A stretch of DNA of 64,000 nt from an uncultured virus (IMG/VR IMGVR_UViG_3300031890_000412) (lineage: Duplodnaviria; Heunggongvirae; Uroviricota; Caudoviricetes). The notes beneath the pieces are model-generated. The model was not told the origin of the DNA and searched no databases. It was given only the letters and a program-made list of their open reading frames with translations. Position 1 is the stretch's first letter. Each line of letters opens with the position of its first letter. Below are positions 1 to 64,000 of this stretch, piece by piece. Where the stretch lies: positions 1 through 64,000 of IMG/VR virus record IMGVR_UViG_3300031890_000412; one strand, 5' to 3'. The position numbers and the translations under genes were made by a program.

Positions 1-2857
1 TGATCCAGCCCGGCGCCAGGTTGTTGAGGTTGTGCGTGATCTGCACCACCGCCGAGCCGGGGGACGGGACGGTGCCGGTGACCTTCTTCAGGCTCACTGC
101 CGGATCCAGCGACAGCCCGGCGGTGCCATTCGCCAATCCGCCGCCGGTGGCAACTTTGGCCGCCACCTGGGTGCCAGTGATGGTGATGCCGTTGCCTTGG
201 GTGTAGGCCTGTTGGCCCGCCACACTGCCGATGTTGACCCAGTTGGACACGGCGGTGTCCACCACGCCGGAGACGGCAGTCTCCTGCCACAGCGTGGACG
301 TCAGCGCGGTGCCCTGCGTGGCCACCACCAGCGCACCCTGCAACAGATAGCTGCCGGTGGCGAAGTCGGCCGGGCGCGTCCAGGCCCCACTGTTGACGAT
401 CCAGATCCCGTTGTTGACCGAGCTGGGCTGATTGGTGGCGAGCACCCGAGTGCCCAGCGGGGTCAGCACACCATCCACCGTCTGCTGGCCCGCCAGGCTG
501 GGGATGGCGGCAGTGGCCACGAAGTTGACCGTCTGCTTGTTGGGCTGCGACGCACTCTGCGCGGCCTGCACCTGGGTGGTTACCGCCGTGTTCAGCTGGC
601 TGCTGGTAACCGCGTTGGCCAGCGCGGTCTGCAGACCCACCACCTGGTTTTGGCCGATGGTGGTGGTATTGGCATACATCGCCCCGATCGACCCGGGAGT
701 GATGGTGACGGCGCCGGTCTGGCTGTTGACGGAGGTGACCGCACCGGGGAACAGCAGCAGCACCCAGTTGGACAGCACCGTGGGATCGGATCCGTTGAGA
801 ATGTAGGTACCCAGGTTGGCGCCTTGGGTGATCACACAAACATCGCCCTGTGTGGCCTGGGTCAACCCGAGCATCGCGGCCTGGCTGGTCACCTGCCAGG
901 TGTGAGTGAGCGCGGTGCCAGGCAGCTGGGCCGGGTTGACGGTGCCTCCCGGCCCGGTCAGATCCGCCTTGCCGGTGAGTGCGGTGGCCAGCCCGGTGAT
1001 CGCAGAGATGGGCGCCCCGGCAGGCAGGTTGACCAGGTTGGTCAGCTTCGCGGCGTCGAAGGTGCCGTAGGTCGCGTTGAGGTTGGCCAGATACGGGGTT
1101 AGGCCCGCGATATAGCTGATCGGGATGACCTGACTCGTCTGCGCGAGCGGGACGGTGCCGCTGACCAGATCGGCCTTGCTGGTCTGCAGCGCGGTGATGG
1201 CGCCGGTGTTGGCCTGCTGCTGGCTCAGTGGGGCCAGCAGACCCAACGCCGTCGACAGCCCGGTCACCTGCCCCTGACTGATGGTGATCGGGTCACTGCC
1301 ACCAGAAGCATGCGTAGAGGCGTGTGTGGTGGGCGTACGCGCGTTGGTGAGCCGGGTGTCGGTAGAAAGCACCCGGTTGTTCAAATCGGTGCTCAGGCCG
1401 GTCACCTGGCCCTCGGTGATGGTGCCGGTGCTGGCGTTGAGCGCCCCGATACTGGACGGGGTGATCTGAACCACGCCGGTCTGCCCGTTGACCATGGACA
1501 CACCGGACAGGTTGCCGATCGGGACGATGGTGCCGTTCTTTTTGACCAGGTTGTTCTGCGCGTTGAGGAACGCGACGTCATTGGGCATCACCGAGTCGGG
1601 AATCACGCCCCCGGCCGACACCGCCGTGTTGGCGTGCACCACCGTCTGATCGCCCGCGATGATGTTGACCTGGTTCTGCAGGGTGGTCAGATCGGTCTCG
1701 TCGGCTTTCAGGCCCAGCTGGGTCGATAGCCCGGTCACCTGGGCGATGTTCACGGTGCCGGTGCCGGTGGCCACCGCGCCAACGTCGCTCGCGCTAAGCG
1801 TCACGTCCCCGGTCTTGCCGTTGACTCCGGTGACCACATTCACCGGCAGCCAGTTGTTGCCCTGCACCGGGTTGGTGCCGATCAGCGCATAGCTGACGCC
1901 GCTGGGCACCCCGCCGGGCGCCAGGTAGGCGACGTCACCCAGCTGTACCTGGTTGGGATAGTTCAGCGCGTACATGGCGGTCAGATTGGCCACCGGGATC
2001 CAGCCGGTGACGGCGGCCGTCGGGATCTCGGTCATCGGGACATGCCCGCCGGTGTCCAGATCGGCCTTGTTGGGCAGCGCGGCGGTGTGCCCGGCCACGG
2101 TGGTGTTCAGTGTGGTGATCTGGTTCTGCAGGTTGGTGTTGTCAGTGGTCAGCGCGGTGCTGACCGCGTTGATGGCGTTCTGCTGGCCGCCGATCTCGCT
2201 GGCCACCGACGCGCTCAGCGACTCGAACTGGGTGTCGGTGTAACTTTTCGCCGTGCTCAGCGTGGTTGCCGCCGAGGAATTGATCTCCGCAACCAGCGTG
2301 CTGTTCAGTGTCGAGTCGGCGGTGACACGGGCCTGAGTCTCGGCGGTCAGCGCGGTGTTGATCGCAGCGAGGTCCCCGGGCACGGTGACCGGGTTGCCGC
2401 TGGCATCCACCACCTCACCGGAGCTGTTGAGCGCGGCCACCCCACCGGCCACCCCGATGTCGGTCTGCTGGACGTAGCTCACCCCGCCGATGACCTCGCC
2501 CAGGCTGGCCACCAGGGTGTCCCAATCGGTGTCGGCGTCGGGCATCGCAAACGGCGTGTTGGTGGTCGGCCCGGTCACCCCACCCTGGCGGATGGCGGTC
2601 AGATAGTTGACGTTCTGGGTCAGCCCGGCCGCGTTGCTGGGGACCAGCGCGAAAACGGCGGTGTTGGTGGCGTTGTTGAGCAGCACCGTCTGCTCCTGCA
2701 CGCCGCCGACATAGGTGGCCACGTCGGGAAAACTGGGCGTGGCCAGCGGGGTGACGGCCACCTCAATGGTCTGCGGGACCTGCACCCCGTCGACGGTGTT
2801 AACGCTTCGTTGGAAATTGAACGTGAGATTCCGTCTAATGAGCGTGGGTGCGGACAC
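1..2857 (-). CDS. Large tail fibre / minor tail protein (>952 aa, runs off the left edge)
   Basis: Manual translation from GTG 2857 (SD GGAGGAG): MSAPTLIRRNLTFNFQ..., open to base 2. T/G/A/V/N-rich, with three V(T/S)xVN(G/S)xTGxVxx modules, QVTGLSTxL/KAD repeats and HASTHASGGSDPI, typical of phage tail fibres. Absent from the ORF track because there is no stop in the window. Confidence 0.85.
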   Translation of the reverse strand, partial: MSAPTLIRRNLTFNFQRSVNTVDGVQVPQTIEVAVTPLATPSFPDVATYVGGVQEQTVLLNNATNTAVFALVPSNAAGLTQNVNYLTAIRQGGVTGPTTNTPFAMPDADTDWDTLVASLGEVIGGVSYVQQTDIGVAGGVAALNSSGEVVDASGNPVTVPGDLAAINTALTAETQARVTADSTLNSTLVAEINSSAATTLSTAKSYTDTQFESLSASVASEIGGQQNAINAVSTALTTDNTNLQNQITTLNTTVAGHTAALPNKADLDTGGHVPMTEIPTAAVTGWIPVANLTAMYALNYPNQVQLGDVAYLAPGGVPSGVSYALIGTNPVQGNNWLPVNVVTGVNGKTGDVTLSASDVGAVATGTGTVNIAQVTGLSTQLGLKADETDLTTLQNQVNIIAGDQTVVHANTAVSAGGVIPDSVMPNDVAFLNAQNNLVKKNGTIVPIGNLSGVSMVNGQTGVVQITPSSIGALNASTGTITEGQVTGLSTDLNNRVLSTDTRLTNARTPTTHASTHASGGSDPITISQGQVTGLSTALGLLAPLSQQQANTGAITALQTSKADLVSGTVPLAQTSQVIPISYIAGLTPYLANLNATYGTFDAAKLTNLVNLPAGAPISAITGLATALTGKADLTGPGGTVNPAQLPGTALTHTWQVTSQAAMLGLTQATQGDVCVITQGANLGTYILNGSDPTVLSNWVLLLFPGAVTSVNSQTGAVTITPGSIGAMYANTTTIGQNQVVGLQTALANAVTSSQLNTAVTTQVQAAQSASQPNKQTVNFVATAAIPSLAGQQTVDGVLTPLGTRVLATNQPSSVNNGIWIVNSGAWTRPADFATGSYLLQGALVVATQGTALTSTLWQETAVSGVVDTAVSNWVNIGSVAGQQAYTQGNGITITGTQVAAKVATGGGLANGTAGLSLDPAVSLKKVTGTVPSPGSAVVQITHNLNNLAPGWI

Positions 2858-2896
2858 GGCTCCTCCTGGCGCGACGGGTTCTCACCCTTATAGGCC

Positions 2897-3313
2897 TCAA
2901 ACCGCCACGAACGCAGCACCGCTCCACTGGTAGAGCTGGCCGGTATTGGCGGCCAGATAGAGGGTTTCGGGGACGCCGGTGGCCGGGAACGCCGCGACAT
3001 TGGCGTAAGTCAGCGTCTGCCAGCCATCTGGCGGGTCGACGTTGTAGCTGATTTTCAGCGTGTCGGTGGACTTTGCCTGCGGCGGGATGGCGTCTTTGGG
3101 CAGCGACACCACGTTGCCGCTGGTGGTGCACGTCGGGTGCGGACCACCGATGTAGAGCACGGTGCCGAACTCGGCGGTGCCTTCGATATCGCCGGGAAGG
3201 GAGGTGTCGTAGATGGACACCACGCGCGCCGCGTCCACCACCGTCATCGCGGTGAAGGTGACGGTGCCCGCGCTGGGGCTGAACGTGTAGGCGGTGACGG
3301 CGATCTCGGTCAT
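2897..3313 (-). CDS. Probable virion structural protein
   Basis: Start MTEIAVTAYTFSPSAGTVTF (SD GGAGG). Beta-rich; C-terminal FPATGVPETLYLAANTGQLYQWSG resembles tail-fibre modules; adjacent to the tail fibre gene. Confidence 0.6.
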   Translation of the reverse strand: MTEIAVTAYTFSPSAGTVTFTAMTVVDAARVVSIYDTSLPGDIEGTAEFGTVLYIGGPHPTCTTSGNVVSLPKDAIPPQAKSTDTLKISYNVDPPDGWQTLTYANVAAFPATGVPETLYLAANTGQLYQWSGAAFVAV

Positions 3314-3323
3314 AAAGCCTCCT

Positions 3324-9275: not shown

Positions 9276-9572
9276 TCAACGTTGCCAGGTGCCCTGGCGG
9301 CAGTGGACGATGTCCTCGGGCGGGGTGTAGGCCACGTCGCCGGGCCGGTCGCACGGTTGGCCTGGCTTCACCGTCAACAGACCACCATTAGCGCCGCGAG
9401 CCATCCACATACCGGATTGACCCGAACAGACCAGCGTTCCGTCCGACGAGACGATTCCACCCGGCGAGCATTGCCCGCCCGGCTGCTCACCGGAAGCGAA
9501 CACCGGGGACGCGGTGACACCGGCCACCCCGAGTAGCAGCGTGGCAATACCTATCGTTCTACGGACAATCAT
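9276..9572 (-). CDS. Small secreted Cys-containing protein
   Basis: Signal peptide (VFA-S); two PGxxC...C modules. Confidence 0.65.
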   Translation of the reverse strand: MIVRRTIGIATLLLGVAGVTASPVFASGEQPGGQCSPGGIVSSDGTLVCSGQSGMWMARGANGGLLTVKPGQPCDRPGDVAYTPPEDIVHCRQGTWQR

Positions 9573-9581
9573 GATGTTTCC

Positions 9582-9929
9582 TTATCTAGTGATTTCGATA
9601 CGGGCACTGGACGGGCTTTCGCAGTAACTGAGAACACCGGTCTCGCCGTAGACCCCGGCGGGATTGCCGACACAGTCCCAGCCGTCGACCGTGGAGGCAT
9701 TACGTGCAGTCTGGGTTCCCTTGCCCGCATTCCAGTCGTTCATGATCGTGCGGGCCTGCTGACAGCTCACTTCACCGCGAACATTCAGGATGAAGGTGCC
9801 CGGGTTGCCCTGAGCGAGCCGTGGAGGGAGTGAGTAGACACCGCAGGTCTGCGCCTGCGCCTGCGGCGCGAGGGCGATACCCGCTCCACACAGGAGCGGG
9901 ATCGCAGCGCCGATAATGGCTTTCCTCAT
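9582..9929 (-). CDS. Small secreted protein
   Basis: MRKAIIGAAIPLL...AQA-QTCG; four Cys in the mature part; VSCQQARTIM, VDGWDC. Confidence 0.65.
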   Translation of the reverse strand: MRKAIIGAAIPLLCGAGIALAPQAQAQTCGVYSLPPRLAQGNPGTFILNVRGEVSCQQARTIMNDWNAGKGTQTARNASTVDGWDCVGNPAGVYGETGVLSYCESPSSARIEITR

Positions 9930-10270
9930 CACCACCTCCCCGAGCGCAATTCGTCCGTGTCTGGGTAATACTCGGCCCAGTAGCCGCGTGGCTTCACGTT
10001 GGGCTGGCCGAGCGGGAACTCGCGGTTGATTCCCTGCAACAACCGGTCGCACTGGTGAAGATCCGCGATGCCGGGGCAGCGTCCGTAATACGCGAAGTCC
10101 TCGCCGCCCGTATTGTTCTTCGTGCGCTGTACCTCGTTGGAACCGACCTTGATCCACGAATGCGGTTTGCCGTGAGGGTCCCAGCCACCCTGCGCCGCGT
10201 TGGCGGGAGCCGCCAACGCGATACCCGCCGCCGCTATTGCTGGTCCGATCACCAGCGCCAGCCGCTTCAC
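9929..10270 (-). CDS. Small secreted protein
   Basis: GTG start MKRLALVIG...APANA signal peptide; two Cys. Confidence 0.65.
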   Translation of the reverse strand: MKRLALVIGPAIAAAGIALAAPANAAQGGWDPHGKPHSWIKVGSNEVQRTKNNTGGEDFAYYGRCPGIADLHQCDRLLQGINREFPLGQPNVKPRGYWAEYYPDTDELRSGRW

Positions 10271-10524
10271 GCGCCCACCCGGTTGCACTGCCAGCCACCG
10301 AAGCCCAGCACGCGCACGTTGACGCAGTGGTCGTAGCTGCCGTCGGCGGCGTAGTGGCAGTCCACGAAGCCCCCGCCGCCGGGCCAGCCGCCACCACCAC
10401 CGCCTTGGGCGTCGTCGGCGTTGACACAGCTCGCGTGTGCGGTGCCCGGGCTGGCCAGCACGACACCGCCCACGGCCAGTCCCACGGCGGCGATTCCGGT
10501 CGCCACCACCCGTTTCAGCATCAT
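10267..10524 (-). CDS. Small secreted Gly/Cys-rich protein
   Basis: MMLKRVVATG...AHA-SC; GGGFVDC..ADGSYDHC...GGWQC. Confidence 0.65.
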   Translation of the reverse strand: MMLKRVVATGIAAVGLAVGGVVLASPGTAHASCVNADDAQGGGGGGWPGGGGFVDCHYAADGSYDHCVNVRVLGFGGWQCNRVGA

Positions 10525-10627
10525 AAGAGATCTCCTTACAGATATGTAACAAAGTGCATGTGATGAAGACCATACCCTAAAGTACACACCATGGTGGAGA
10601 TTACTTTATAGGTATATCTTAAGAGGT

Positions 10628-25149: not shown

Positions 25150-28100
25150 CTGAACCCACTCACAGCAGCACCCACAGCGCACAGACCAGCACCCCCAGAA
25201 CCAGCACACAGACCAGGCCCCACTCGTCGAAGAACGTGTTCACGACACCTCCTGTGGGGGTGTGGCCACCAGGTCGTAGCCCACCGCGCGGGCCTCGGCG
25301 ATCACCTGCTCGGCGAACGGGTCGCAGATCGAGCGGCTCGGCCCGAACCCGAAAGCGTGGTAGACCAGCTCGGAGAAGGCCATGCCCAGCAGCCGTTGGT
25401 CGATCATCGGTCCTCCGCCAGCCGGTAAACACACTTGCCCGCGCTGTGCGGGACCCGCGTCACGATGCCGTGCCGATGCAGGGTTTCCAGGATCACCTTC
25501 TGGTGCCGGTCAATCCGCAGGTGCGGGGGCCAGATCCCGCCGCACAGCCGCATGGTTTCCAGGATCACCCGCTGGCGTTTGCCCTGTCCCCGCATCATTG
25601 GTCCCCGTACTGGTCGGACGGCGGCGGCCAGGTGGCCGGGGTCAGCGGCGGGCCGATCGGGCGGTGGGCGTCGTCGTCCAGGGCGATCACCGCCCCGAAG
25701 GCGATGCCCAGCGCCACCACCCAGAAGGCGATCTTCCACCAGCTCATATCGGTGCCCTATCCGCCTCGTGCATCATGCGTGCCAGCCGAGCCACCGCCAC
25801 CGCCGCCAGCATGGCCACGTTGCCGCCCCCGATGTCGCCCTGCGTCTCGGCGGTGCCCAGCGCCATGGCCACGCTGAGCGCGACGTCCTTGTCGGTGCGC
25901 CCGTCGTTGATGAACTCGGTGGCCAGCACCACGAAGGCGTTCAGCTTCTCGTTGTGGTCGGTGTAGATGTCGCGCTCGCCGTCGTCCACAGCAAACACCT
26001 TCCTGTTGCCTTCTCGTAGGTTGCCGTTTTCAGCGTGCGTAGCAAACTCGGTACACGCCGTTGTCCAGGCTGAGAATGCCACGCTGGACCAGCCCGTCGA
26101 AGATGTGCCGGTGATCGCTGCGGATCTTCCAGTGCTGCGGCCACATCCCGGCGTTGCGGTGCATGGCGTCCAGCACCGCTTGCTGGCGCCGTCCCAGCTT
26201 CTTCTCGTTCACCGGCGCCGTCTGCGGTACGCGTTGCGTCCCCAGATCGCCAGCTGGGTCACGATCGCCCCGAACAGGCCGCCCACCAGAAACTCTGCCC
26301 AACTCACAACACTCCCTATCTCGTCGACGCCTTAGTCCTGTGGCCCCGGCAGCGGCTTGTTCAGGTCTGCCCACGGCTCAAAGCCCCACCATTTGTCGCG
26401 TTCCCGCACCGCGTCATTGAACGCCTCCAAGGCATTGAAGACGAACATGGCCAGGATAAAATCGGGGGTGTGACTGCGGTTCTCCACGCTGTGCCGGTTG
26501 CACAGCTCGCGCAGCTCTTCCTCGAAGCTCTTCCCGTCGTTCACAGCACTCCCTGTCTGGCCGCCAGCTCGGCCCTGATGGAGGTCACCAGCGCCTGCAG
26601 CCAGCTGTCGTCGGCGCCCTTGATGTGAATCGCGTTGCCGATCCGGACCGCCTTCATCCCCGGCTGCAGGGTGATGGTGAAGGTCGGCTTCATGGGGCTC
26701 ACCTCTGGATCGGCTTGTCCTTGATCTTCGCATGCAACGCCGTTCCCATATTGATCTTGGTCATCGCGGGTGCAGCGGTTTGCCGTCGATCTTGGCACTG
26801 ACCGCGCCCCCGCACGCCATACAGGCCACATGATAGGGCTCGTCGGAGACGAATTTGTGCGGGCGAACGCTGCCGTCGGCGTTGAACACCGCCGGGTCGC
26901 GGAACCTCTTATCGATGGTGGTCATGTGTTCTCCTTGGGTGATTTTCGTGCTGTAGATCAACAGCACCGTGTTGAGCAGGCAGACGACGATCAGCGCTCC
27001 CAGAAGCGCCCCCAGAAGCAGCGTTGTCACGGGTATCCACTAGCAGACCCCGGTTACCGGCATGCGTCAACATGTTCACAACGGGCCTTCAGCGGGCCTG
27101 TACGCCATCATGGCGTGCCGGTAGGCCACTATGGCGTCGGGCCCCTCGAACGTGCGCTCACAGCGGTCCCAGCCCGCATAGACGGCATATCTACGCAACC
27201 CCTCCACCGTCGCGGGACGAGGGGGCCAGTTGGTGCTCGCCCACCAGGTCTGCCCCAGCGGGTCGGTGTAGCCCCAGGAGGACCCGTCGGGAGCGATACC
27301 GTGCAGGATCCAGGTCACGACAGCAGCCCTATCGTCAACCGATACTCAGGCCCAGCAACACCCCAGACAGGAAGAACAGCGTGATGACTAGGGCGAATCC
27401 GCCCCAGGTGGCGTTGTAGCCAATGCGAGGCTCGGTCATATCCAGGTCTTCCTGTCGGGGGCCATGCCGTGCAGCGTCCAGGTCATTCGACCACCACCTC
27501 GGGGACCAGCAGTTTGGGCTTGCCCTGCTCGGTGATCGGGGTGCGGCGCAGGGTGCCCGGCACCTGACCGGGGACTTCGACGTAGTCGTACCAGTGCTGA
27601 CGCTGTGCTTCTGCACGTAGCTCACGACGCAATTGGTGAAGGACCACGGCCTTTCCCGGCTCGGTGGCCCGTGCATAAGCACGGGCGTGCACCGGCAGGA
27701 TCTCACGGGTGGCGTACTCAGCGATGCAGGGGTCTTTGGGGCAGGTCAAGGTGATTTTCACGGGCGTTCTCCGTAGTCGAGCAGGTCTGTGGTTCGGACG
27801 CGGGGGGATGTGTACGCGGTGGGGGGTACCGCAGGCGGGACAGTCCGCCTCCATGTAGCAGTCGCCGCGCCTGACCGCGACAGGGGCGTCGGGCGGGGTG
27901 GTGTAATCGCACAGCCGGATACCGCAAGAACAGTCGATGACGCAGGTCATCCGAACAGCTCCCTGGCGGGGATCGGTACTACGTGGTGCGCTCCGCAATC
28001 GGGACAGTCAATCATCAGATGAGACTGATCTTGCAGAATCGCCATCGGCGCGTCCGGTGGTGGCGTGTATTCGGTCAGGTTCTTGGTGGGTCTGATGATG

Positions 28101-50811: not shown

Positions 50812-51840
50812 TCAATTTCCCGGTGCGATCGACGCTACCACGCAGGTAAACAGTGCGAAAGAGTTTCCGGACGTGGGTTTCCAGAATCTGGGGATGCGCA
50901 CGATGTTGCCCATGTCCGACCACGTGGGCCTGCGGTCATTGGTCAGCTGCACTCTGATCGCTCGGGTGTAGCGGAACATCGGAGCCAGCGCCATAAGGTG
51001 GAAATACCACAGCTGGGCGACAAGCCGGTCGGTGTAGTGCTCGCCCTCGGAGAACCAATCCCAGTGGTCGTTGCCCGACGCGGTGTCGGCAGCGCGCATA
51101 GCCTGGGAGCGGTCCTGGGCAAAGACCCCACCGTCGCCTATCCGGCCGTCGGTGCGCCCCAGATCGTTGATGATCTCCTCGTCGGGCTGCTCGACGCGCT
51201 TGAAGAACGGGCTGAGGTCCTCGGCGTTCATCGACATCACGATCGGGTTGTCGGCCTCGATCTTCTTGCGGATCCGGCTGTCCACCCACTTCTCGCCCGA
51301 GCGCAGGTTGTCGTAACGCTCCCGGCGCTGGGGGTTGAGCAGCACCCTGGCGATCTCGCGCAGGTACATGAACTCCTCGGTGTCGGGCGCCCAGCCGGTG
51401 TCGGGGTGGGTGCGCCGGTACTTGGTGGCCAGCGCCTTGCGGATCTCGGCCTCGGTGGCATCGGGGCGCACGCCCAGCAGCCGGTAGTAACCGTTGGCAT
51501 CCAAGCCGATCTTGCGGGGGATGCGCATCAGCGCCCGCGCGCAGCTGGGGTAACCCACGCCGGGACAGTGGTCGCGCGAGCTGAAGAATTCTTCCGCGCG
51601 CTGACTGGCCACCCAGACCGGGGTGGCGGGCAGGTTCTCTGGCTCGATGAAGTCGGGCCCGTAGACGTCCCACGGCGCCTCGGGCTCGGGACCAATACCG
51701 AGGGCCGCCTGGATGCTGTCGCGGCCGGGGTGACCCACCAGGGAGCGGTACAGGTCGTTGGCGCTGCTGGGGTGGCGCAGAAAGCGATCGCCGTCATCGG
51801 TCCCCAGAATCTCGTGGATGTGGGGGATCCGGCCCATCAA
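50812..51840 (-). CDS. J-domain (DnaJ-like) protein
   Basis: YYRLLGVRPDATEAEIRKA...HPD...VLLNPQRRERYD. Confidence 0.8.
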   Translation of the reverse strand: MMGRIPHIHEILGTDDGDRFLRHPSSANDLYRSLVGHPGRDSIQAALGIGPEPEAPWDVYGPDFIEPENLPATPVWVASQRAEEFFSSRDHCPGVGYPSCARALMRIPRKIGLDANGYYRLLGVRPDATEAEIRKALATKYRRTHPDTGWAPDTEEFMYLREIARVLLNPQRRERYDNLRSGEKWVDSRIRKKIEADNPIVMSMNAEDLSPFFKRVEQPDEEIINDLGRTDGRIGDGGVFAQDRSQAMRAADTASGNDHWDWFSEGEHYTDRLVAQLWYFHLMALAPMFRYTRAIRVQLTNDRRPTWSDMGNIVRIPRFWKPTSGNSFALFTCVVASIAPGN

Positions 51841-54415: not shown

Positions 54416-55191
54416 ACGATCGGTCGCCGCTTCTCTCCGACATCGACCTCGTCGTTTTCCAGCCTGAAATTGATGAGCCCGTAATCGGCGCCCTTCACCT
54501 CCACGTGGAAACAGGACCTCTTGAGCTGGCTTAACACCGCGCCACCGTAGCCCAGGTCGAGGTTGTCAGGCTCGATGTTGGTGGTCAGGATCGTCGGGCG
54601 GGCGTTCTGGGCACGATCGCGCAGAATGTGGTCAAAGGTGGTCTGCGGCAGGTTGTGGCTGGACCGTCCCTCCTTACCCAAGTCGTCGAGCAGCAGCACC
54701 TGGGTGTACATGAACCTGTCCTCGAACCACTGCTTCTTCGACTTGTCTCCCCAGGTGGCGGTGAACGCCTCGATCATCTTGGAGAAAGTGGTGGCGTAGC
54801 ACCTCACGCCTTGGCGGACCAGATGCTTGAGGATCATGTTGGCCAGGAACGTCTTGCCGGTGCCGAGAGGCCCCCACAGAATGACCCCCATCCCCCGATC
54901 GACGTAAGCCTCCCAGTTCTGCAGGTAGTGGTCGACCGCCTTGTAAGCCTCTTCGTCACCGTGCCAGTCGGCCACGCTGGACCGCTGGAAAATTTTCCCG
55001 ATCCCGGCGGCGGTGTAGTGCTTGGCCAGCTGCTTCTGACGCTGGCAGTCGCAGTTGCGATCTTTACCCTGCCAGCGGTAAGTGCCCTTGTTGGCGCAGG
55101 TGGGACAAGTGGTCTTCAGATCCGGCCAGACCTGGTAGACGCGCTCGGCCTCCTCGGTGGACAACGCCAGATCGATCGAATCCCCGCTCAC
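54412..55191 (-). CDS. dnaC: DnaC-like helicase loader (AAA+)
   Basis: CPTC...CDC, GPLGTGKT, LLLDDLG, TILTTN. Confidence 0.88.
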   Translation of the reverse strand: MSGDSIDLALSTEEAERVYQVWPDLKTTCPTCANKGTYRWQGKDRNCDCQRQKQLAKHYTAAGIGKIFQRSSVADWHGDEEAYKAVDHYLQNWEAYVDRGMGVILWGPLGTGKTFLANMILKHLVRQGVRCYATTFSKMIEAFTATWGDKSKKQWFEDRFMYTQVLLLDDLGKEGRSSHNLPQTTFDHILRDRAQNARPTILTTNIEPDNLDLGYGGAVLSQLKRSCFHVEVKGADYGLINFRLENDEVDVGEKRRPIV

Positions 55192-56249
55192 AGCAGCTCT
55201 CCCATCTCGATGCACGCCGCCGCTATCGCGTCCACGGCCACCCGCACCTGCTGCACGGTGACGGTCAGCGGCGGGGACAGCCGCAGAGTGGGCTGGATAA
55301 GCAGCCCCGCGTGGCGGCAGCGGCGGCGGAAATCCTGTGCCTGGCTCGGGGCGTTGAGTTTGATGGTGCGGATCAGCCCGATGCCCGGGGTGGAATGCAG
55401 GATGTCGCTGAACTGCTCGCGCACCGTTTCCAGGTCGGTGCGCAGCGTGTCGGCCACGTTGCGGACCTGCGCCAGCAACGAATCGTTGATGCGCGGCACG
55501 ATCGCATTGCCCACCGCGCAGGCGATCGGATTCGGGGTGGGCGCAACGTGCGCGATCAGCTGGCGGAAAGCATCCGACTCGAACAACGGACCTGGCGCCA
55601 ACACCGCGTTGCACGGCAGGCCCCCGGTGCCCGCCGAACCGAGCAGGATGACGTCGGGGGTGACGTGGTACTGCTCGAACAGACCGAACGTGCCGGTGCG
55701 CCCAAAGCCGGTGTCCAGCTCGTCGGCAATGATCTTCAGCCGCTGCGCGCGGGCCCGGTGCACCTCATCCTGCACCTCGCCGCCTTCACGTGGCACCCCT
55801 TCGGGATCCAGCAGGCTCAGGAAGTAGCCGCCTTGCGACGGTGGGCAAATGCAGATCTGGGCGGCGGTCATGCGCGCCTCGTAGATCGACGGCGTGAACA
55901 TCACCTTCAGCGGCTGGCCGTCCTTCTGCGGAAAGCGCTCGGAGAGCAGCGCGGCGTAGTCGGCCACCAGCCGGTCCTGGTAATCACCGTAATCACCGAA
56001 CCAGGTGTGCTCCTGCAGCTGCACCAGCGCCATGTTGGCCACCTCGGGGTCACGGTGCCCGAACAACAGCTGAGAGCCGCCGTTGAAGTCCAGGTACTGC
56101 TCGCCGTACTCGTCCATGATGGTCGCGCCGATACCGCGTCCCATCGGGTGCAACAGGGACCCGGGATTCAGACCGGCCAGATAGGTCAGGCACTTCCGGC
56201 GGCCCTCCGCGAAATGTTGGTCAAGCAGGTCCTTGGCCGACTGATCCAT
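55188..56249 (-). CDS. Class III aminotransferase-like protein lacking the catalytic Lys
   Basis: G.GA...DEYGEQYLDF, FGHRDP, IIADELDTGFGRTG, PDVILLGS..TGGLP, LRLSPPL. Confidence 0.75.
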   Translation of the reverse strand: MDQSAKDLLDQHFAEGRRKCLTYLAGLNPGSLLHPMGRGIGATIMDEYGEQYLDFNGGSQLLFGHRDPEVANMALVQLQEHTWFGDYGDYQDRLVADYAALLSERFPQKDGQPLKVMFTPSIYEARMTAAQICICPPSQGGYFLSLLDPEGVPREGGEVQDEVHRARAQRLKIIADELDTGFGRTGTFGLFEQYHVTPDVILLGSAGTGGLPCNAVLAPGPLFESDAFRQLIAHVAPTPNPIACAVGNAIVPRINDSLLAQVRNVADTLRTDLETVREQFSDILHSTPGIGLIRTIKLNAPSQAQDFRRRCRHAGLLIQPTLRLSPPLTVTVQQVRVAVDAIAAACIEMGELL

Positions 56250-56796
56250 TCTTCGACGATGCCTTCGCTTTAGTCTTACGTTTACGCCGCGTCTTCTTCG
56301 GTGGCTCCGGCGCCCACCGGCCGGTCTTGGCCAGTTGAACGCGCCTGACAACCTCCTGCAACTGGTCGATGGAACGCATGCCGCCCTTCTGGTACAGCGA
56401 CACCGCCATGTTCTGGATGACTTCGAGGTTGAACCGCCGGATCCCTTTCTTGCCGTGGCGCTCGGGCTCGATCGGACGGGGCTCGGGATTCTCGGGATCC
56501 AGCGGGGGATGATCGGGATCGTCCAGCGCGTAGTAGAACCAGCCGCCGCCGCCGTCGTCGCGCGAGCGCATCGCCCAGTACATCCACTGCGGGCTCTTAC
56601 CGAAAAACTGCGCGGCCTCCTCGGTGTTGTAGACGCGCTCGATCCCCGACAGGTCGACGTCGATCGTCTCGATCTGCCGGAACACCTCGGCCACCGCTTC
56701 GACGGGGATGGCCAGGCCCCGCCCGCTGGCTGATGCCGCGAACTGACGTGCGGCTGTGATAGCCCAGTCCTCCGAGCCAGCTTTTTCACGCTCCAT
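56221..56796 (-). CDS. MerR/Xis-like HTH DNA-binding protein
   Basis: VYNTEEAAQFFGKSPQWMYW...GIRRFNLEVI; basic tail. Confidence 0.65.
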   Translation of the reverse strand: MEREKAGSEDWAITAARQFAASASGRGLAIPVEAVAEVFRQIETIDVDLSGIERVYNTEEAAQFFGKSPQWMYWAMRSRDDGGGGWFYYALDDPDHPPLDPENPEPRPIEPERHGKKGIRRFNLEVIQNMAVSLYQKGGMRSIDQLQEVVRRVQLAKTGRWAPEPPKKTRRKRKTKAKASSKNGSVGQGPA

Positions 56797-57617: not shown

Positions 57618-59572
57618 CTATCTGCCGCCTTGGCGCTGTTTGACGATCTCGCGCTGGGCGATCTGCACCATCTCTTCGAGCACCGGCGCCAGCACGCCGG
57701 TCTGGATCATCTGGAACGCCAGCTTGATCTCCTCCTGGGTGGGGATGGGATCGACCCACACCCCGTTGCGCTCCCAGCCCTTCCAGCCGATGGACGCCTC
57801 GGTACCCGGCTTGAGCCATTGGTCGGTGGTGCCGTTGACCGTGAGGGTGGCATCCATACGCACAGTCAATTTGAAGGAGTCGATACGGGTGGGTGGCTCG
57901 GGGTCGCTCACAACCGGGCCTCTTCGTTGATCTGGACCTCGGCGGCGATCTGCTTCAGCTCGTAAGTCCACAGCCGGTCTTCAATCTCTTGGCGCCTGAA
58001 GTAGTCGGGGTCGTCGAACACCGGCCACCATTTGATCAGCAGCACCAGGTACACGGCCAGTGCGATCAGGATCGCGCTCACCGCCACGGTTTCAAGGACT
58101 TCCATTGTGTGTCTCCTCTGCTTGGCGCTGCAGCTCGTCGATCTTGAGCAGCGTCACGTCCTCCACCAGTCGGCGTTCGACCGGCGTAAGATCCTCCATC
58201 ATCTCCTGGCCGTAGACCCAGTGTTCGGCCAGCACCGCCAGCATCTGAGCCAGCAGATACGCCGGAAACCGGCCCTGCCGGGCCTCGACGAACTGCACCG
58301 AGCGCCGCAATGCCTCGCCGGGGGTGAGCAGCCTGCCGTGCAGAACCAGCTGCCCCTCGGCGCCCTCCACCCAGTCCTCCAAGAACGTCAGGAAAGCCAC
58401 GCTGATCTCGCCGCCGCCAGCCAGCGCCGCCCGGCGCCCCTGCCAGCTGTCGGTGTCACGCGTCTTCACGGCGGCAAGCCTCTAGGACGCGCTCGATGCC
58501 CGGGCGCGACGTCGGAATGGAGACGTGCGGGAAGTTTTTCTCCGGCATGTACGGCTTGGACGTCAGGTGATAGTGCTCGGCGTGCTCGCACTTGTACACC
58601 CGCTGCTCGCACCTCTGGCCCACCGCCCGCTGAATGCGTTTCAGCGCCTCTTTCGCATCGGCATGCGTCCGGTAGCCCAGCTTGCCGCCCGACGGCTCGC
58701 AGGGGCCTATGTCGAGGATTCTGGACATGCCGGAATGGCTGCGCCGGGACCGTTTGGAGCGCTGCTCCTTACCATGGCTGCTCACGGCTCGACAACTTTC
58801 AGCTCGGACCAGTTGTGCACCGCCAGGGCGCCGGGGCGGTCGTCGAACTCCACCATGGCGAAGTGCACATTGCGCTCGGACAGCCCCTGCGGACCGGCGT
58901 TGCAGCGCATCGTCAGCGGCAGCGGGTCGGCGGTCAGTCCCAGCTTCACCGCGATCTCATAGTCGCTCTCCTGCGAATAACGAGCCTTGGCCTCCCGGCT
59001 GGGTTTCCAGACCGTGCCCACATGGATGCCCACCGAGCAGCCCATCGACAGGCACTTGTATTCGACTCTCACTTTGTTTCCTTCCCGAGCAGGCTCGTGA
59101 TCCGGCTGGCGCTCATATGAACTCCAACATCATCGGGTGGGTGGCTTTGGCGATGCGGTCGGCGCCATAGCGCACGTACACATAGGGATCGTTGACGTGG
59201 CTGATCACGCCGTACTCGGGCTGGTGGTCGGTGTCGTGGATCTGGAAGACCACCTGGGCACCGATGCGTTCCTCGGCTTCGTCGAGTCTCATGGCCATGG
59301 CCCCCATCATCACGCGAAGAGGAACGCCAAGACGACAAATAGGAACAAGCCCACCATGATGAAGGTGCCGAACACCGCGCATCCCAGCAGGTAGCCCCGA
59401 GTGAAGTTGGTGAAAATTTCCTCGGCCACACCTGGTTTGCGACGCGCCGGTGGCAGTGCTCGCGCCCGAGGCGCCGCGTAATAGTGCAGGTGCAGGATCT
59501 GGTCGTTCACGACGCCTCTCGCTTCACCGTCTGAGGCCCACCGCGCTCGTCGGTTACCTGCGTTTCGTGCAT
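57618..59572 (-). other. Run of small coupled hypothetical genes (57618..57911, 57908..58105, 58092..58469, 58456..58785, 58782..59072, 59310..59510, 59507..59572)
   Basis: Overlapping start/stop codons; 58456..58785 has VYKCEH..HYHLTS. Confidence 0.6.
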
Positions 59573-60789: not shown

Positions 60790-62268
60790 TTACCAGCTCA
60801 GCACCATGCCGCCCTCGTCCTCCTCGGGCCCGGCGGTGTCCACCAGGTCGTCGATCCAGGACACCGCCGCGCAGTCCAGCACCTCCTTGGCTCGGGTGAC
60901 CGCCACGTAGCCGATCATTGCCTCGGCCTCCGAGATGGTCGGCGTCTCGCCGTCCTCGGTGACGCGCGGGGCGAAGAAGTCCCCGGCCACCTTGACCGTC
61001 TCCCACTGCCGACCCTTGCTCTTGTGCGCGGTGGAGACGATCACGTCGGCGTCGTCCTCGTTGCGGGAGAGTGCGTTGGTGGCTTCCAGGATCCGCTCGA
61101 TGCCATGCTCCTCGATCAGCTTGATCAGCGGCAGCAGGTCGCGGCCCCCCTCCTCCTCGGTGGCGTAGCGCACCACCGAGTCCCAGTCGGGGAAGGCGTA
61201 CAGCTCGGGGTGGTTGGTGGTCTTGCCTTCCCGCAAGTCCCCCGCCGCCCGAGCCAGCCTGCTCAATGCGTCACCGCCGCCCACCAAGGACACCCGACGG
61301 CCCGAGTCCAGCTCGCCCAGCACGTGGCCCATGGCGCCCGCATTCGTGCGGCACAGGATCGCCTTGGGCTTCTCCAAGGTGTCCACCACCGAGTCCATGT
61401 GCGGGTTGCCGATCAGTTCCAGCGGGGTGTGCAGCTGGTGCAGCCATTTGTTGGCCTCGTCCGCGATCGCCTGCCCGAACCGCCAGGACTGCGCCAGATA
61501 GAGCTGACGGGCGTTCTTCCAGCCGCCCAGCGCATCGACCGCCCCGCGCCAGGCATACATCTGCTGGCACGAGTCCCCCACGATGATCTGCTGGGCGTTC
61601 TGATCGCTGATCAGCTTGGCCAGCACCGGGTTGGCGTCCTGCGCCTCATCGAAGTAGATGGTGTAGTAGGGCAGCTCCGGCCGGGTCAACGCCCACATCT
61701 TCAGATAGTGATCGTGCTCGAACGGCATCCAGCCGCTGCGGTCGTTGACGTCGGCCCACCAGCGCTGGGCCAGTGGCAGCACGTTGGCCACCAGGACGGC
61801 GTGGTCGGCCCCGATGATCCCGTTCTGCGGTGGGACGTGGCGGGCGGTGATCTCGTCGTCGGCGCTGTAGCAGAACCGGCGCACCGTGTCCCCGGCGATA
61901 CGCGCCAGGTGGCTGGACTTCACCATGACGTCGCGGCCTAATCGCAGGTTGCGCAGCCCCATCCGTTTGGCCACCTCCCAGCTCGGCTCGCGCTTGCCCG
62001 AGATCCGGTGCCGGAAGTCCTTGCCCACCGCCCCGTAGGCCAGCCCGTGGCTGGTCTTGCAGGTGACGTGCCCGGGGAACTTGCCCGAGGCATCCAGCTG
62101 GATCGGCTTGTTGTAGGCCACGTACAGGCTGCGTTTCGGCAGCTGCTCGGCCACCATCACCAGGGTGGACGTCTTGCCCGTCCCGGCGCCCGCCTGCACG
62201 ACCAGGTTGTCCCCGCTCAGGGCCCCGTCGATGACCGCCTGCTGTTCGGCGGTCGGTGGGTATTCCAT
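60790..62268 (-). CDS. UvrD-like SF1 helicase
   Basis: AGAGTGKT, DEAQD, GDSCQQMYAWRG, STAHKSKG, YVAVTRA. Confidence 0.9.
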   Translation of the reverse strand: MEYPPTAEQQAVIDGALSGDNLVVQAGAGTGKTSTLVMVAEQLPKRSLYVAYNKPIQLDASGKFPGHVTCKTSHGLAYGAVGKDFRHRISGKREPSWEVAKRMGLRNLRLGRDVMVKSSHLARIAGDTVRRFCYSADDEITARHVPPQNGIIGADHAVLVANVLPLAQRWWADVNDRSGWMPFEHDHYLKMWALTRPELPYYTIYFDEAQDANPVLAKLISDQNAQQIIVGDSCQQMYAWRGAVDALGGWKNARQLYLAQSWRFGQAIADEANKWLHQLHTPLELIGNPHMDSVVDTLEKPKAILCRTNAGAMGHVLGELDSGRRVSLVGGGDALSRLARAAGDLREGKTTNHPELYAFPDWDSVVRYATEEEGGRDLLPLIKLIEEHGIERILEATNALSRNEDDADVIVSTAHKSKGRQWETVKVAGDFFAPRVTEDGETPTISEAEAMIGYVAVTRAKEVLDCAAVSWIDDLVDTAGPEEDEGGMVLSW

Positions 62269-62326
62269 GTGTGTCTCCCTTCCTTACAATCTCATGAACG
62301 AGTTTACCCTACAGGTATATTCCCTA

Positions 62327-62923
62327 TCACATCCACTCGGGGCGTATCCGACGCCACCGCTCCACTGTTCCCTGAGGCACCGACCGTTGATATCCCTGAC
62401 GGTGCAACACAGACTTGGATATCCCGAACTCCACCACCACCTCGGCCAGCCTGATCAGTGGCTGGGGATGCAGATTCAGCTCGGGGCGCGGCGCCGGGGC
62501 GGGTTTGTCGCTAACGATGACTGGCTGCAGGGTGGGTGGCTCGGGCTTGGGTTGGCGACGACGCGCGGGACGCTGTCCTTTCGGCCTGGCCCGTCGGGGA
62601 GTCAGGTTGGCGCCGTAAAACCGCAGGAACGTCCTCGTCGCTCGGGTCAGCGTCCAACCCTCGTTCTCCTTGTGCAGCTTGTGCACGAGGTCGTGACAAC
62701 GCTGACACAGCGGAACCAGATCGGAGTCCAACTCAGCTCCCATCCGCCGGTAGGTGTGGTGATGCAGGTGGATGTCGATGACGCTCCCGCACGCCTGGCA
62801 CTGCCTCTTGTGATTGGCATAGAAGGCTGCCTTCCTGCGCTCCCAGCTGGTCGAATTGATGTACTGGGCGTATTCGTCTTTGCTGCGCCTTCTACGGGGC
62901 TCTGAGCGGGTTTGCTGGGGAAT
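62327..62923 (-). CDS. HNH endonuclease with C-terminal HTH-like domain, probable ATT start
   Basis: EYAQYINSTSW...CQACG...HLHHHTYRRMG.E...DLVPLCQRCH..VH. The N-terminal half lies upstream of the first ATG (62743); AGGAG-N7-ATT at 62923. Confidence 0.75.
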   Translation of the reverse strand: MPQQTRSEPRRRRSKDEYAQYINSTSWERRKAAFYANHKRQCQACGSVIDIHLHHHTYRRMGAELDSDLVPLCQRCHDLVHKLHKENEGWTLTRATRTFLRFYGANLTPRRARPKGQRPARRRQPKPEPPTLQPVIVSDKPAPAPRPELNLHPQPLIRLAEVVVEFGISKSVLHRQGYQRSVPQGTVERWRRIRPEWM

Positions 62924-62929
62924 TGGAGT

Positions 62930-63412
62930 TCTCCTGGGTCTTAGGGCCTACTTCGGGCCTTGCCTCGGTGACCCCCCAGGCGACTGACCCCCATTTGCCA
63001 TCTCCGGTACTGTCACACCACCTCTGGCCCCCTGTCTTGGAGTGACAGAGAGCTGATACGCATTGACCTGAGGCTTGCTCTGCAGCTGCGAGCTTCGGGT
63101 ACCCGGCCCGGCCCGGGATTTCCTCGTAGGAGACTCAGTACCGGGAGCCGTGTCAGGTACTCCGGATACGGAACGGGAAGGGAGAGCGGGTTTTTCGGCG
63201 GGTCTCCCCGTAAGCGCCGGTAGGAGGGGCAGTGGCAGCTGCAACAATTACCATCCGGTAACCGGGAGCGCAACCCCGTCCAACATGTTGGGTGAACTGG
63301 TTGCACTACCCCCCAGATGTAGAGATACTCTCAGATACGCACAGAGATGCGTGGAGACAGTGGCAACTTCTCCGAAGGGCCCCGGCACATGGGAGCCGGG
63401 GCTCTTTTCTTT
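62930..63412 (+). ncRNA. Candidate structured non-coding RNA (or origin/control region)
   Basis: About 480 bp with no credible ORF, many inverted repeats, and a plus-strand terminator at its end. Confidence 0.35.
63377..63412 (+). terminator. Intrinsic terminator
   Basis: gggccccggc-N8-gccggggctc followed by ttttcttt. Confidence 0.75.
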
Positions 63413-63445
63413 CCACAAGTCGTCCAATTTTCCTACAATGAGCTG

Positions 63446-64000
63446 GTGACACACGCGACGGTTGAGTCGACCATCGAACTTTTGGCCAGCGACCCCGAGG
63501 TCGACCTGGACACCGTCGTGTTGGTCAGCGAGTCCACCGCCTACTCGGGCTGCCTGCGTTTCGAACCGTTCGACGGGGACCGGCAGGGCTTCTTCCAGCG
63601 CTACGGCTTGGAGGAGAACTGGATCAGCCGGTTCCTGGTGCTCAACGAGCACCACAACCTGCGCCATTTCATCCGCCAGCTGCTCGACGACAGCTGGCTG
63701 CTGGTGTATGACCCGTCGGCGGATCCGATCCTAGCCGACTTCGAGCGCTGGGCGGCGCCGCTGGACGTGCAGGGCTTCACCTGCCCGCACCACGGGCAGC
63801 TGCGGCCCTATCAGACCTTCGGGATTCAGCGGGCGCTGGAACGGAACGAGGCTCAGAAGGCCTCTGAGCGCCTCACGGTGCCCGGGTGGTGTGCCGGTGC
63901 CGGGAAGAGCCTGTTCGCCTGCGCAGGGGCTCAGGAGCTGGCCAACAGGGGCCTTGTGGACGTGGTGCTAGCTTTCACCCTGATGCGCCACAAAGACAAC
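63446..64000 (+). CDS. SF2 (SNF2/DEAD-like) helicase, N-terminal part, probably leaderless
   Basis: GTG 6 nt after TACAAT; open to the window end; LRPYQ (Q-motif) and GAGKS (Walker A). Absent from the ORF track. Confidence 0.75.
   Translation, partial: MTHATVESTIELLASDPEVDLDTVVLVSESTAYSGCLRFEPFDGDRQGFFQRYGLEENWISRFLVLNEHHNLRHFIRQLLDDSWLLVYDPSADPILADFERWAAPLDVQGFTCPHHGQLRPYQTFGIQRALERNEAQKASERLTVPGWCAGAGKSLFACAGAQELANRGLVDVVLAFTLMRHKDN

Follow-up and report, generated by a model that had tools for sequence, protein, structure and literature searches.

We consider it very likely that the stretch between a small HNH endonuclease gene and a divergent helicase gene in this viral DNA encodes a real structured RNA, read from the minus strand and homologous to a replication origin that was proven by experiment, and works independently of protein, in the small mycobacteriophage Et2Brutus (Wetzel 2020); with appreciably less confidence, we think it probable that the element works as an RNA-primed replication origin in its own phage. 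The window (the whole 64,000-nucleotide stretch of DNA that was analysed) makes up the first half of a virus record of 125.7 kb whose estimated completeness is 84%, and profile and pairwise homology place the conserved RNA core, a member of the Et2Brutus-origin family, at positions 62966–63227 on the minus strand. A first-pass annotation of the same DNA had proposed a stand-alone structured RNA, which covariation among homologs supports, but had read it from the plus strand rather than the minus strand; its fallback guess of a replication origin is supported by the homology to the proven Et2Brutus origin.

Circularity in this assignment was avoided by three tests: (i) the Et2Brutus ori fragment alone matches 63162–62962 (E 1.9e-5, pairwise, against the whole 125.7-kb record); (ii) an HMM built from 19 HNH-free members, Et2Brutus included, matches 63220–62968 with an E value of 1.5e-9 in 125.7 kb; and (iii) the element of the syntenic phage L103 aligns with Et2Brutus at 74.5% identity over 224 nt (E 1e-24). 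One member, L189, which adjoins parA and parB, is 99.7% identical to Et2Brutus 25485–25865 on the minus strand (MF140410.3). This match falls within the Et2Brutus fragment 25381–26052, on the strand opposite to parA; the fragment alone is reported to support plasmid replication, tolerating stop codons in its ORF and dispensing with parABS, and the ori RNA of Alma and LadyBird is described as running opposite to parA (PMC7157519). The window copy is a distant member of the family, with 45–58% aligned identity to the others and 49% to Et2Brutus. Core lengths range from 222 to 281 nt among members, with indels throughout and no conserved protein ORF inside, and the element is single-copy in each of the four records searched. 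With the remaining four proven origins, the core shows no match in either orientation, which agrees with the 41–49% identity given in PMC7157519. A direct blastn search of named phages with this region returned nothing, and no tRNA or tmRNA was detected in it. The Rfam covariance-model check that had been suggested gave no match at gathering and, at E values up to 10, only terminator-like noise; a likeness to Ms1, raiA, group I/II introns or RNase P gained no support from Rfam. A second, weak match of the HNH-free profile (72985–73046 of the record, minus strand, E 0.016) lies within a tail-region gene and is probably due to chance.

The family was gathered from HNH homologs, which yielded 72 loci; in the nearest of these, the DNA upstream showed a match to the window on the strand of the HNH gene. 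A profile of seven HNH-linked copies then selected seven HNH-free members from pattern scans, four of them in large phages with a shared gene order (divergent helicase, element, Tad4-family gene, the Tad4 family being Pfam-confirmed in two of these four) and three in small prophages. A second search round brought in L196, L216 (Rhodococcus) and L189. In all, 11 distinct members were kept from 145 pattern-scan loci after profile scoring, and the remainder were treated as chance. In 151 genomes from the family to which the Rhodococcus genome belongs, a sequence-only model picked out 12 loci, spread over 11 genomes, none with an HNH gene within 1.5 kb; among 151 genomes drawn from the phylum, no member was found and the positive control genome was missed too. 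Two short-form members had no match among plasmids.

On the plus strand, the divergent helicase (641 aa, Helicase_C match) starts at 63446 and runs past the end of the window at 64000 to 65371; its closest named matches are Phrappuccino gp95 (47%) and cluster C1 helicases (44%). Its mRNA is probably leaderless, judging from a TACAAT at 63434–63439. On the other side of the element, the HNH gene (62327–62923, minus strand, about 197–198 aa) is optional and is absent from syntenic relatives; the first-pass annotation had recognised it correctly, its PF01844 match (E 3e-4) lying just under the cut-off. No ATG, GTG or TTG precedes the nuclease motif of this ORF and an AGGAGA (62935–62930) stands seven bases ahead of an AUU at 62923, so that AUU is the probable start; its homologs start M-x-QQT. 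In the modelled protein, a disordered linker joins the HNH domain to a small helical C-terminal domain (pLDDT ~87), so that a helical domain stands where an HTH had been proposed, but no HTH family matched it. This C-terminal domain is replaced in several homologs, and the protein has only weak matches to other HNH proteins. Directly behind the HNH gene lies a UvrD/REP-type helicase (60790–62268, minus strand), whose best named matches (~37%) are from large Streptomyces phages and which might conceivably act at R-loops, in clearing or loading. A Tad4-family gene, described by Pfam as a type I Thoeris inhibitor, is found at 58092–58469 (minus strand); in relatives (the loci noted being L001, L103, L105 and L227) and in Catera, such a gene stands immediately behind the element or behind its HNH; in the window, the UvrD helicase and several small genes lie in between.

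The record encodes its own replication set, comprising DnaE, a DnaB-like helicase, a primase, an IstB/DnaC-like loader and RecA, and the replication gene cluster also holds a class III aminotransferase and a DnaJ-domain protein (55188–56300 and 50812–51840). Within this record, 84% complete, ParA, tyrosine integrase and RNase H were not matched, nor was AAA_31, which belongs to the parABS cassette context. The cumulative strand-skew minimum is at 71 kb, not 63 kb. Skew at four-fold sites differs between left and right in the expected direction; since a change point at 29 kb fits equally well, we did not use skew as origin evidence.

Double-sided changes were seen in 14 of the 23 named pairs among 17 members with a median identity of 55%, a count that none of 500 shuffles reached, and 82% of these pairs are formed, versus ~43% in slid controls; these statistics, like the p-values below, overstate independence because the members are related. 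The compensatory pairs lie on the minus strand, and RNAalifold returned 24 pairs on the minus reading versus five on the plus reading. Hairpin H1 (63196–63219, minus strand) has a 5-bp stem, 63219–63215 with 63200–63196, in which 94% of cells are paired and two of the five pairs show double-sided change. Hairpin H5 (63027–63053, minus strand), with such changes in seven of its 12 pairs, folds at −20.8 kcal/mol with its own arms versus −14.3 kcal/mol with crossed arms. A long-range helix of 6 bp joins 63134–63129 with 63005–63000 on the minus strand (own versus crossed partners, p 2e-5). All six of its pairs form in 16 of the 17 members. Read on the minus strand, they include about ten G-U pairs and not a single A-C pair, and as G-U wobbles set the strand, we assign the RNA to the minus strand. 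The window copy itself has kept both the long-range helix and H5 by compensatory changes. In members found by the sequence-only model, a perfect long-range partner stands at the expected place in ten of 12 (0.68 expected), five of the ten sharing one strand type and the two misses being mis-anchored. A wide-window test of this helix gave only p 0.08; the narrow one was successful, the 5' strand of the helix having been placed by hand in two of the 17 members. A pseudoknot through a second long-range helix was unsupported in two tests (p 0.15 and 0.13) in which several anchors were mis-picked.

The complementary segments listed in the first-pass annotation are all present where it placed them, the 62933/62970 pair needing a 3-nt bulge, and two of them, the ctgtcac/gtgacag pair, which H5 carries on the other strand, and the terminator, correspond to helices conserved among homologs. 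No counterpart was visible by eye in the homolog alignment for the ccggtactg/cagtaccgg, tgcagctgc, gcaacc/ggttgc and ttacc/ggtaa helices. Nor is the density of such segments exceptional: relative to shuffles, the folding z of 62920–63420 is −1.48 on the plus strand and −1.37 on the minus strand, and the minus-strand core folds no better than its shuffles (z = −0.08). Nor was the region confirmed as the longest ORF-free stretch of the window, given that mechanical ORFs overlap it and that a crude coding filter leaves other gaps of more than 520 nt. Further long stretches without a coding-like ORF, by the same kind of crude filter, lie at 9355–10627, 2244–3323 and 27031–27946.

Upstream of the core, 20 hand-anchored loci, all five proven origins included, have an A-rich run and a GC-rich hairpin. 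In the window, this hairpin (63377–63412) would form the 5' hairpin of the long RNA when read from the minus strand and, when read from the plus strand, the U-tailed terminator of a predicted antisense RNA. The U-tailed plus-strand hairpin had been noted before, as had the absence of an upstream plus-strand gene; most likely, it ends a short antisense RNA, predicted to be 60–80 nt long, and not the long RNA, and RNA I of ColE1 is described as ending analogously (PMC5043065). An antisense TANNNT lies 15–30 nt behind the hairpin in 16 of the 20 loci (3.05 expected; three in the same-strand control), and all five proven origins are among the 16. TANNNT is the mycobacterial −10 pattern. In the window, the antisense −10 box is displaced to +47; the predicted antisense promoter (63301–63331, plus strand) combines a −35 TTGCAC at 63301–63306 with a −10 TACTCT at 63326–63331, and the predicted RNA would span ~63336–63412 (~75 nt) and include an extra hairpin. 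The candidate sense promoter (63410–63438, minus strand) consists of a −35 TTGTAG at 63438–63433 and a degenerate −10 TGGAAA at 63415–63410; the latter occupies the location of the TAGAAA-type boxes of relatives but fails the pattern. A look-up of RNA runs listed none containing this DNA. Because the sense −10 is degenerate and the antisense box displaced, the window copy may be weak. A convincing 5' hairpin was not found by scan in L103, L017, L115, L088 and L216, the scan having also missed the real ones of L012 and L022.

Between this control region and the core, the window has a specific hairpin insertion (63230–63304, minus strand), recognised from the spacing: the hairpin-to-core distance is 151 nt here versus 56–104 nt in most relatives. 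The RNA ends in a G-rich 3' tail with two GGG(A/G)GGUC blocks (62969–62992, minus strand), a candidate R-loop anchor in view of its GC skew; in all 17 members, the GC skew of the last 70 nt is +0.22 to +0.45. The ColE1 R-loop requires an rG stretch pairing with template dC (PMC4412123).

At the equivalent slot, Catera, Tonenili and Phrappuccino have an unannotated gap, which in Catera falls between genes 184 and 185. Promoter, H1 and 5' hairpin recur in this gap (profile E 6e-5 to 2e-3, 11 loci), and since its middle differs, we treat its RNA as a related type and not as the same core. Long G runs, in which the RNA ends, replace the two-block tail in C1/AA phages; the gaps of cluster C1 phages and Phrappuccino (L227:1640–2060, L228, L226:1380–1830) have two such runs, which could in principle form a G-quadruplex. 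The Catera version matches 206 records, 202 of them over most of its length. Members of the family occur beside parA/parB, behind repressor-type genes in prophages and, in an island, between an XRE/HTH_17 pair and parA. In islands L237, L238, L242 and L233, the RNA follows an XRE-type regulator, with an excisionase-like HTH gene in three of them; parA lies downstream of the RNA in L242, and the island RNA is positioned where an initiator gene would be expected. In passing, no such gene was noticed within 1.5–2 kb on either side of the members. Et2Brutus, reported to be partly incompatible with the Gladiator origin, has the 5' hairpin region in common with it, but not the core.

We therefore favour, as the probable reading, an RNA-based replication origin of the Et2Brutus type. 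RNA polymerase would, as in ColE1, make a ~440-nt transcript from ~63405 toward 62960, which would fold during synthesis while its G-rich tail stayed hybridised to the C-rich template as an R-loop. Its processed 3' end would prime DNA synthesis and open the duplex for helicase loading (we infer priming by the RNA from the parallel with ColE1), and the DnaB-like helicase, the IstB/DnaC-like loader, the primase and DnaE could take over next. The ~75-nt antisense RNA would bind the 5' end of the long RNA and limit firing, and the HNH protein would be free-standing, use the origin's transcript and probably spread through homing-like cassette exchange.

Because the promoter is imperfect, because skew does not localise an origin and because Alma and LadyBird are reported to keep normal lytic growth after ori deletion (PMC7157519), the window copy may be weak or a relic. 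That it descends from an origin RNA but is now a weakened relic or only the leader of the HNH gene, lytic replication starting elsewhere, we judge unlikely. The degenerate sense −10, the non-canonical HNH start and the phage's own replisome and RecA would suit such a history, as would a related contig (helicase ~85% alike) in three of four soil runs, which replaces 62289–63396 and appears ~470 nt shorter, one side of the replacement being anchored by only 22 nt. However, the compensatory changes that preserve the long-range helix and H5 in the window copy speak against decay, as does retention of the slot over cluster C1 (191 of the 206 records at least 99% identical), AA and environmental relatives. 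Still less probable is that transcription exposes the fold in single-stranded DNA, where it would signal priming or helicase loading, and that no primer RNA is involved. Covariation does not distinguish RNA from single-stranded DNA, a caveat also made for plasmid motifs (PMC5737381), but the G-U and missing A-C pairs of the long-range helix fit RNA, a transcript has been reported over the origins (PMC7157519), and the promoter and antisense layout point the same way.

We find it very improbable that the HNH protein has the RNA as its scaffold or guide in a HEARO/omega-like ribonucleoprotein, as the first-pass annotation had suggested. Such a partnership would be in keeping with our survey of 60 distinct HNH-family sequences, as an origin-type RNA is present at ten of the 48 that had 450 nt or more of upstream sequence (window included), among them all five distinct loci ranked closest to the query HNH. 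Against it, the gene is missing from 22 of the 23 pattern- or model-found members (1.5–2 kb flanks), the sole carrier, L099, being on the same contig as a seed; the HNH adjoins three RNA types, namely the core type, the C1 type (L022) and the Alma type (Weirdo19); and in JustASigh it interrupts the RNA, with the 5' hairpin on one side and the core on the other. That annotation had itself held that conservation in phages lacking the HNH would speak against a partnership, and the minus-strand RNA is indeed conserved without HNH in syntenic phages, prophages and islands, with no match to HEARO or any other Rfam family. The protein was rightly said not to be IscB, RuvC and RRXRR family matches being absent. 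This distribution fits a mobile passenger at origins rather than an obligate partner. The HNH tree (quick method, 4 of 55 branches starred) is unresolved and does not support monophyly of the origin-linked HNHs. In Weirdo19 (L003:1578–2036), the Alma-type origin RNA (E 4e-4 to 1e-3) lies upstream of a related HNH, outside the parABS context described for such origins in PMC7157519. Annotated gene 65, possibly a false call, overlaps the JustASigh core (L004:2420–2671); Et2Brutus gene 32 is likewise antisense to the RNA. A trans-acting phage RNA unrelated to replication, such as a polymerase or ribosome sponge, can be given equally little weight: two Shine-Dalgarno-like blocks in the tail, and GGAGG blocks in the tails of most members, would suit it, but the Et2Brutus member, whose first block is degenerate, lies within a fragment sufficient for replication (PMC7157519), and no fitting Rfam family appeared at E values up to 10.

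More tentatively, and with our doubts slightly outweighing our confidence, we propose that RNA-primed, antisense-controlled origins are a widespread actinobacterial module from which replication starts in prophages that integrate, in genomic islands and in the large lytic myoviruses of cluster C, AA and their relatives, with at least three exchangeable RNA types and a small HNH clade that is specialised in sitting in or behind them and drives exchange between co-infecting phages. RNA-based origins have been called almost exclusive to cluster A, and mycobacteriophage replication poorly characterised (PMC7157519). The main text of that study contains no secondary-structure analysis, primer-end map or antisense RNA map, and in the freely accessible literature searched, we found nothing on the structure of this RNA, its antisense partner or its occurrence beyond cluster A. 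The present analysis supplies the fold with its compensatory pairs, a predicted antisense regulator and an unannotated candidate origin in about 200 cultured cluster C1 phage records, which offers a candidate for where large phages with their own replication genes begin DNA copying. If true, this would be a second natural lineage of ColE1-like priming and a source of new small replicons for actinobacterial genetics; the predictions are testable by the existing plasmid assay in M. smegmatis.

Compared with known systems, the element resembles HEARO/omega RNAs with IscB in that a structured RNA precedes, on the same strand, an ORF that carries an HNH (PMC9755519). However, the ORFs described there have both RuvC and HNH, whereas the window protein has HNH only, Rfam is unmatched and the RNA mostly occurs without the ORF. 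The plasmid motifs ARRPOF, GEBRO and PAGEV are similarly structured, 200–350 nt long and tied to replication regions (PMC5737381), but come from other phyla and gave no Rfam match in the window. T4, too, is a large phage that encodes a replisome, and its R-loop origins oriF and oriG start from a transcript primer, as proposed here, but they are described as a promoter plus an unwinding element, without structured RNA or antisense control (PMC4412123). ColE1 RNA II/RNA I offers a likeness of inferred layout, with a long primer RNA, a short antisense RNA over its 5' end and a G-rich stretch (PMC5043065, PMC4412123); the comparison is one of layout, the RNase H and Pol I steps would apply here by analogy, presumably through host enzymes, and the hosts in our case are actinobacterial phages and islands. 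In the non-RepA origins of Alma, LadyBird, RedRock and Gladiator (PMC7157519), promoter and 5' hairpin are present and an antisense −10 box stands at +20 to +24, but the core sequence differs. The non-RepA prophage origin of Et2Brutus (subcluster A11) comes from a different setting, the window phage being large and cluster C/AA-like, with DnaE, DnaB, primase and loader and no parABS found, and the window adds the ~85-nt hairpin insertion and the downstream HNH; yet the two are alike in core sequence and fold, RNA direction, 5' hairpin, antisense −10 box and G-rich tail (PMC7157519), and origin activity is predicted for the element described here.
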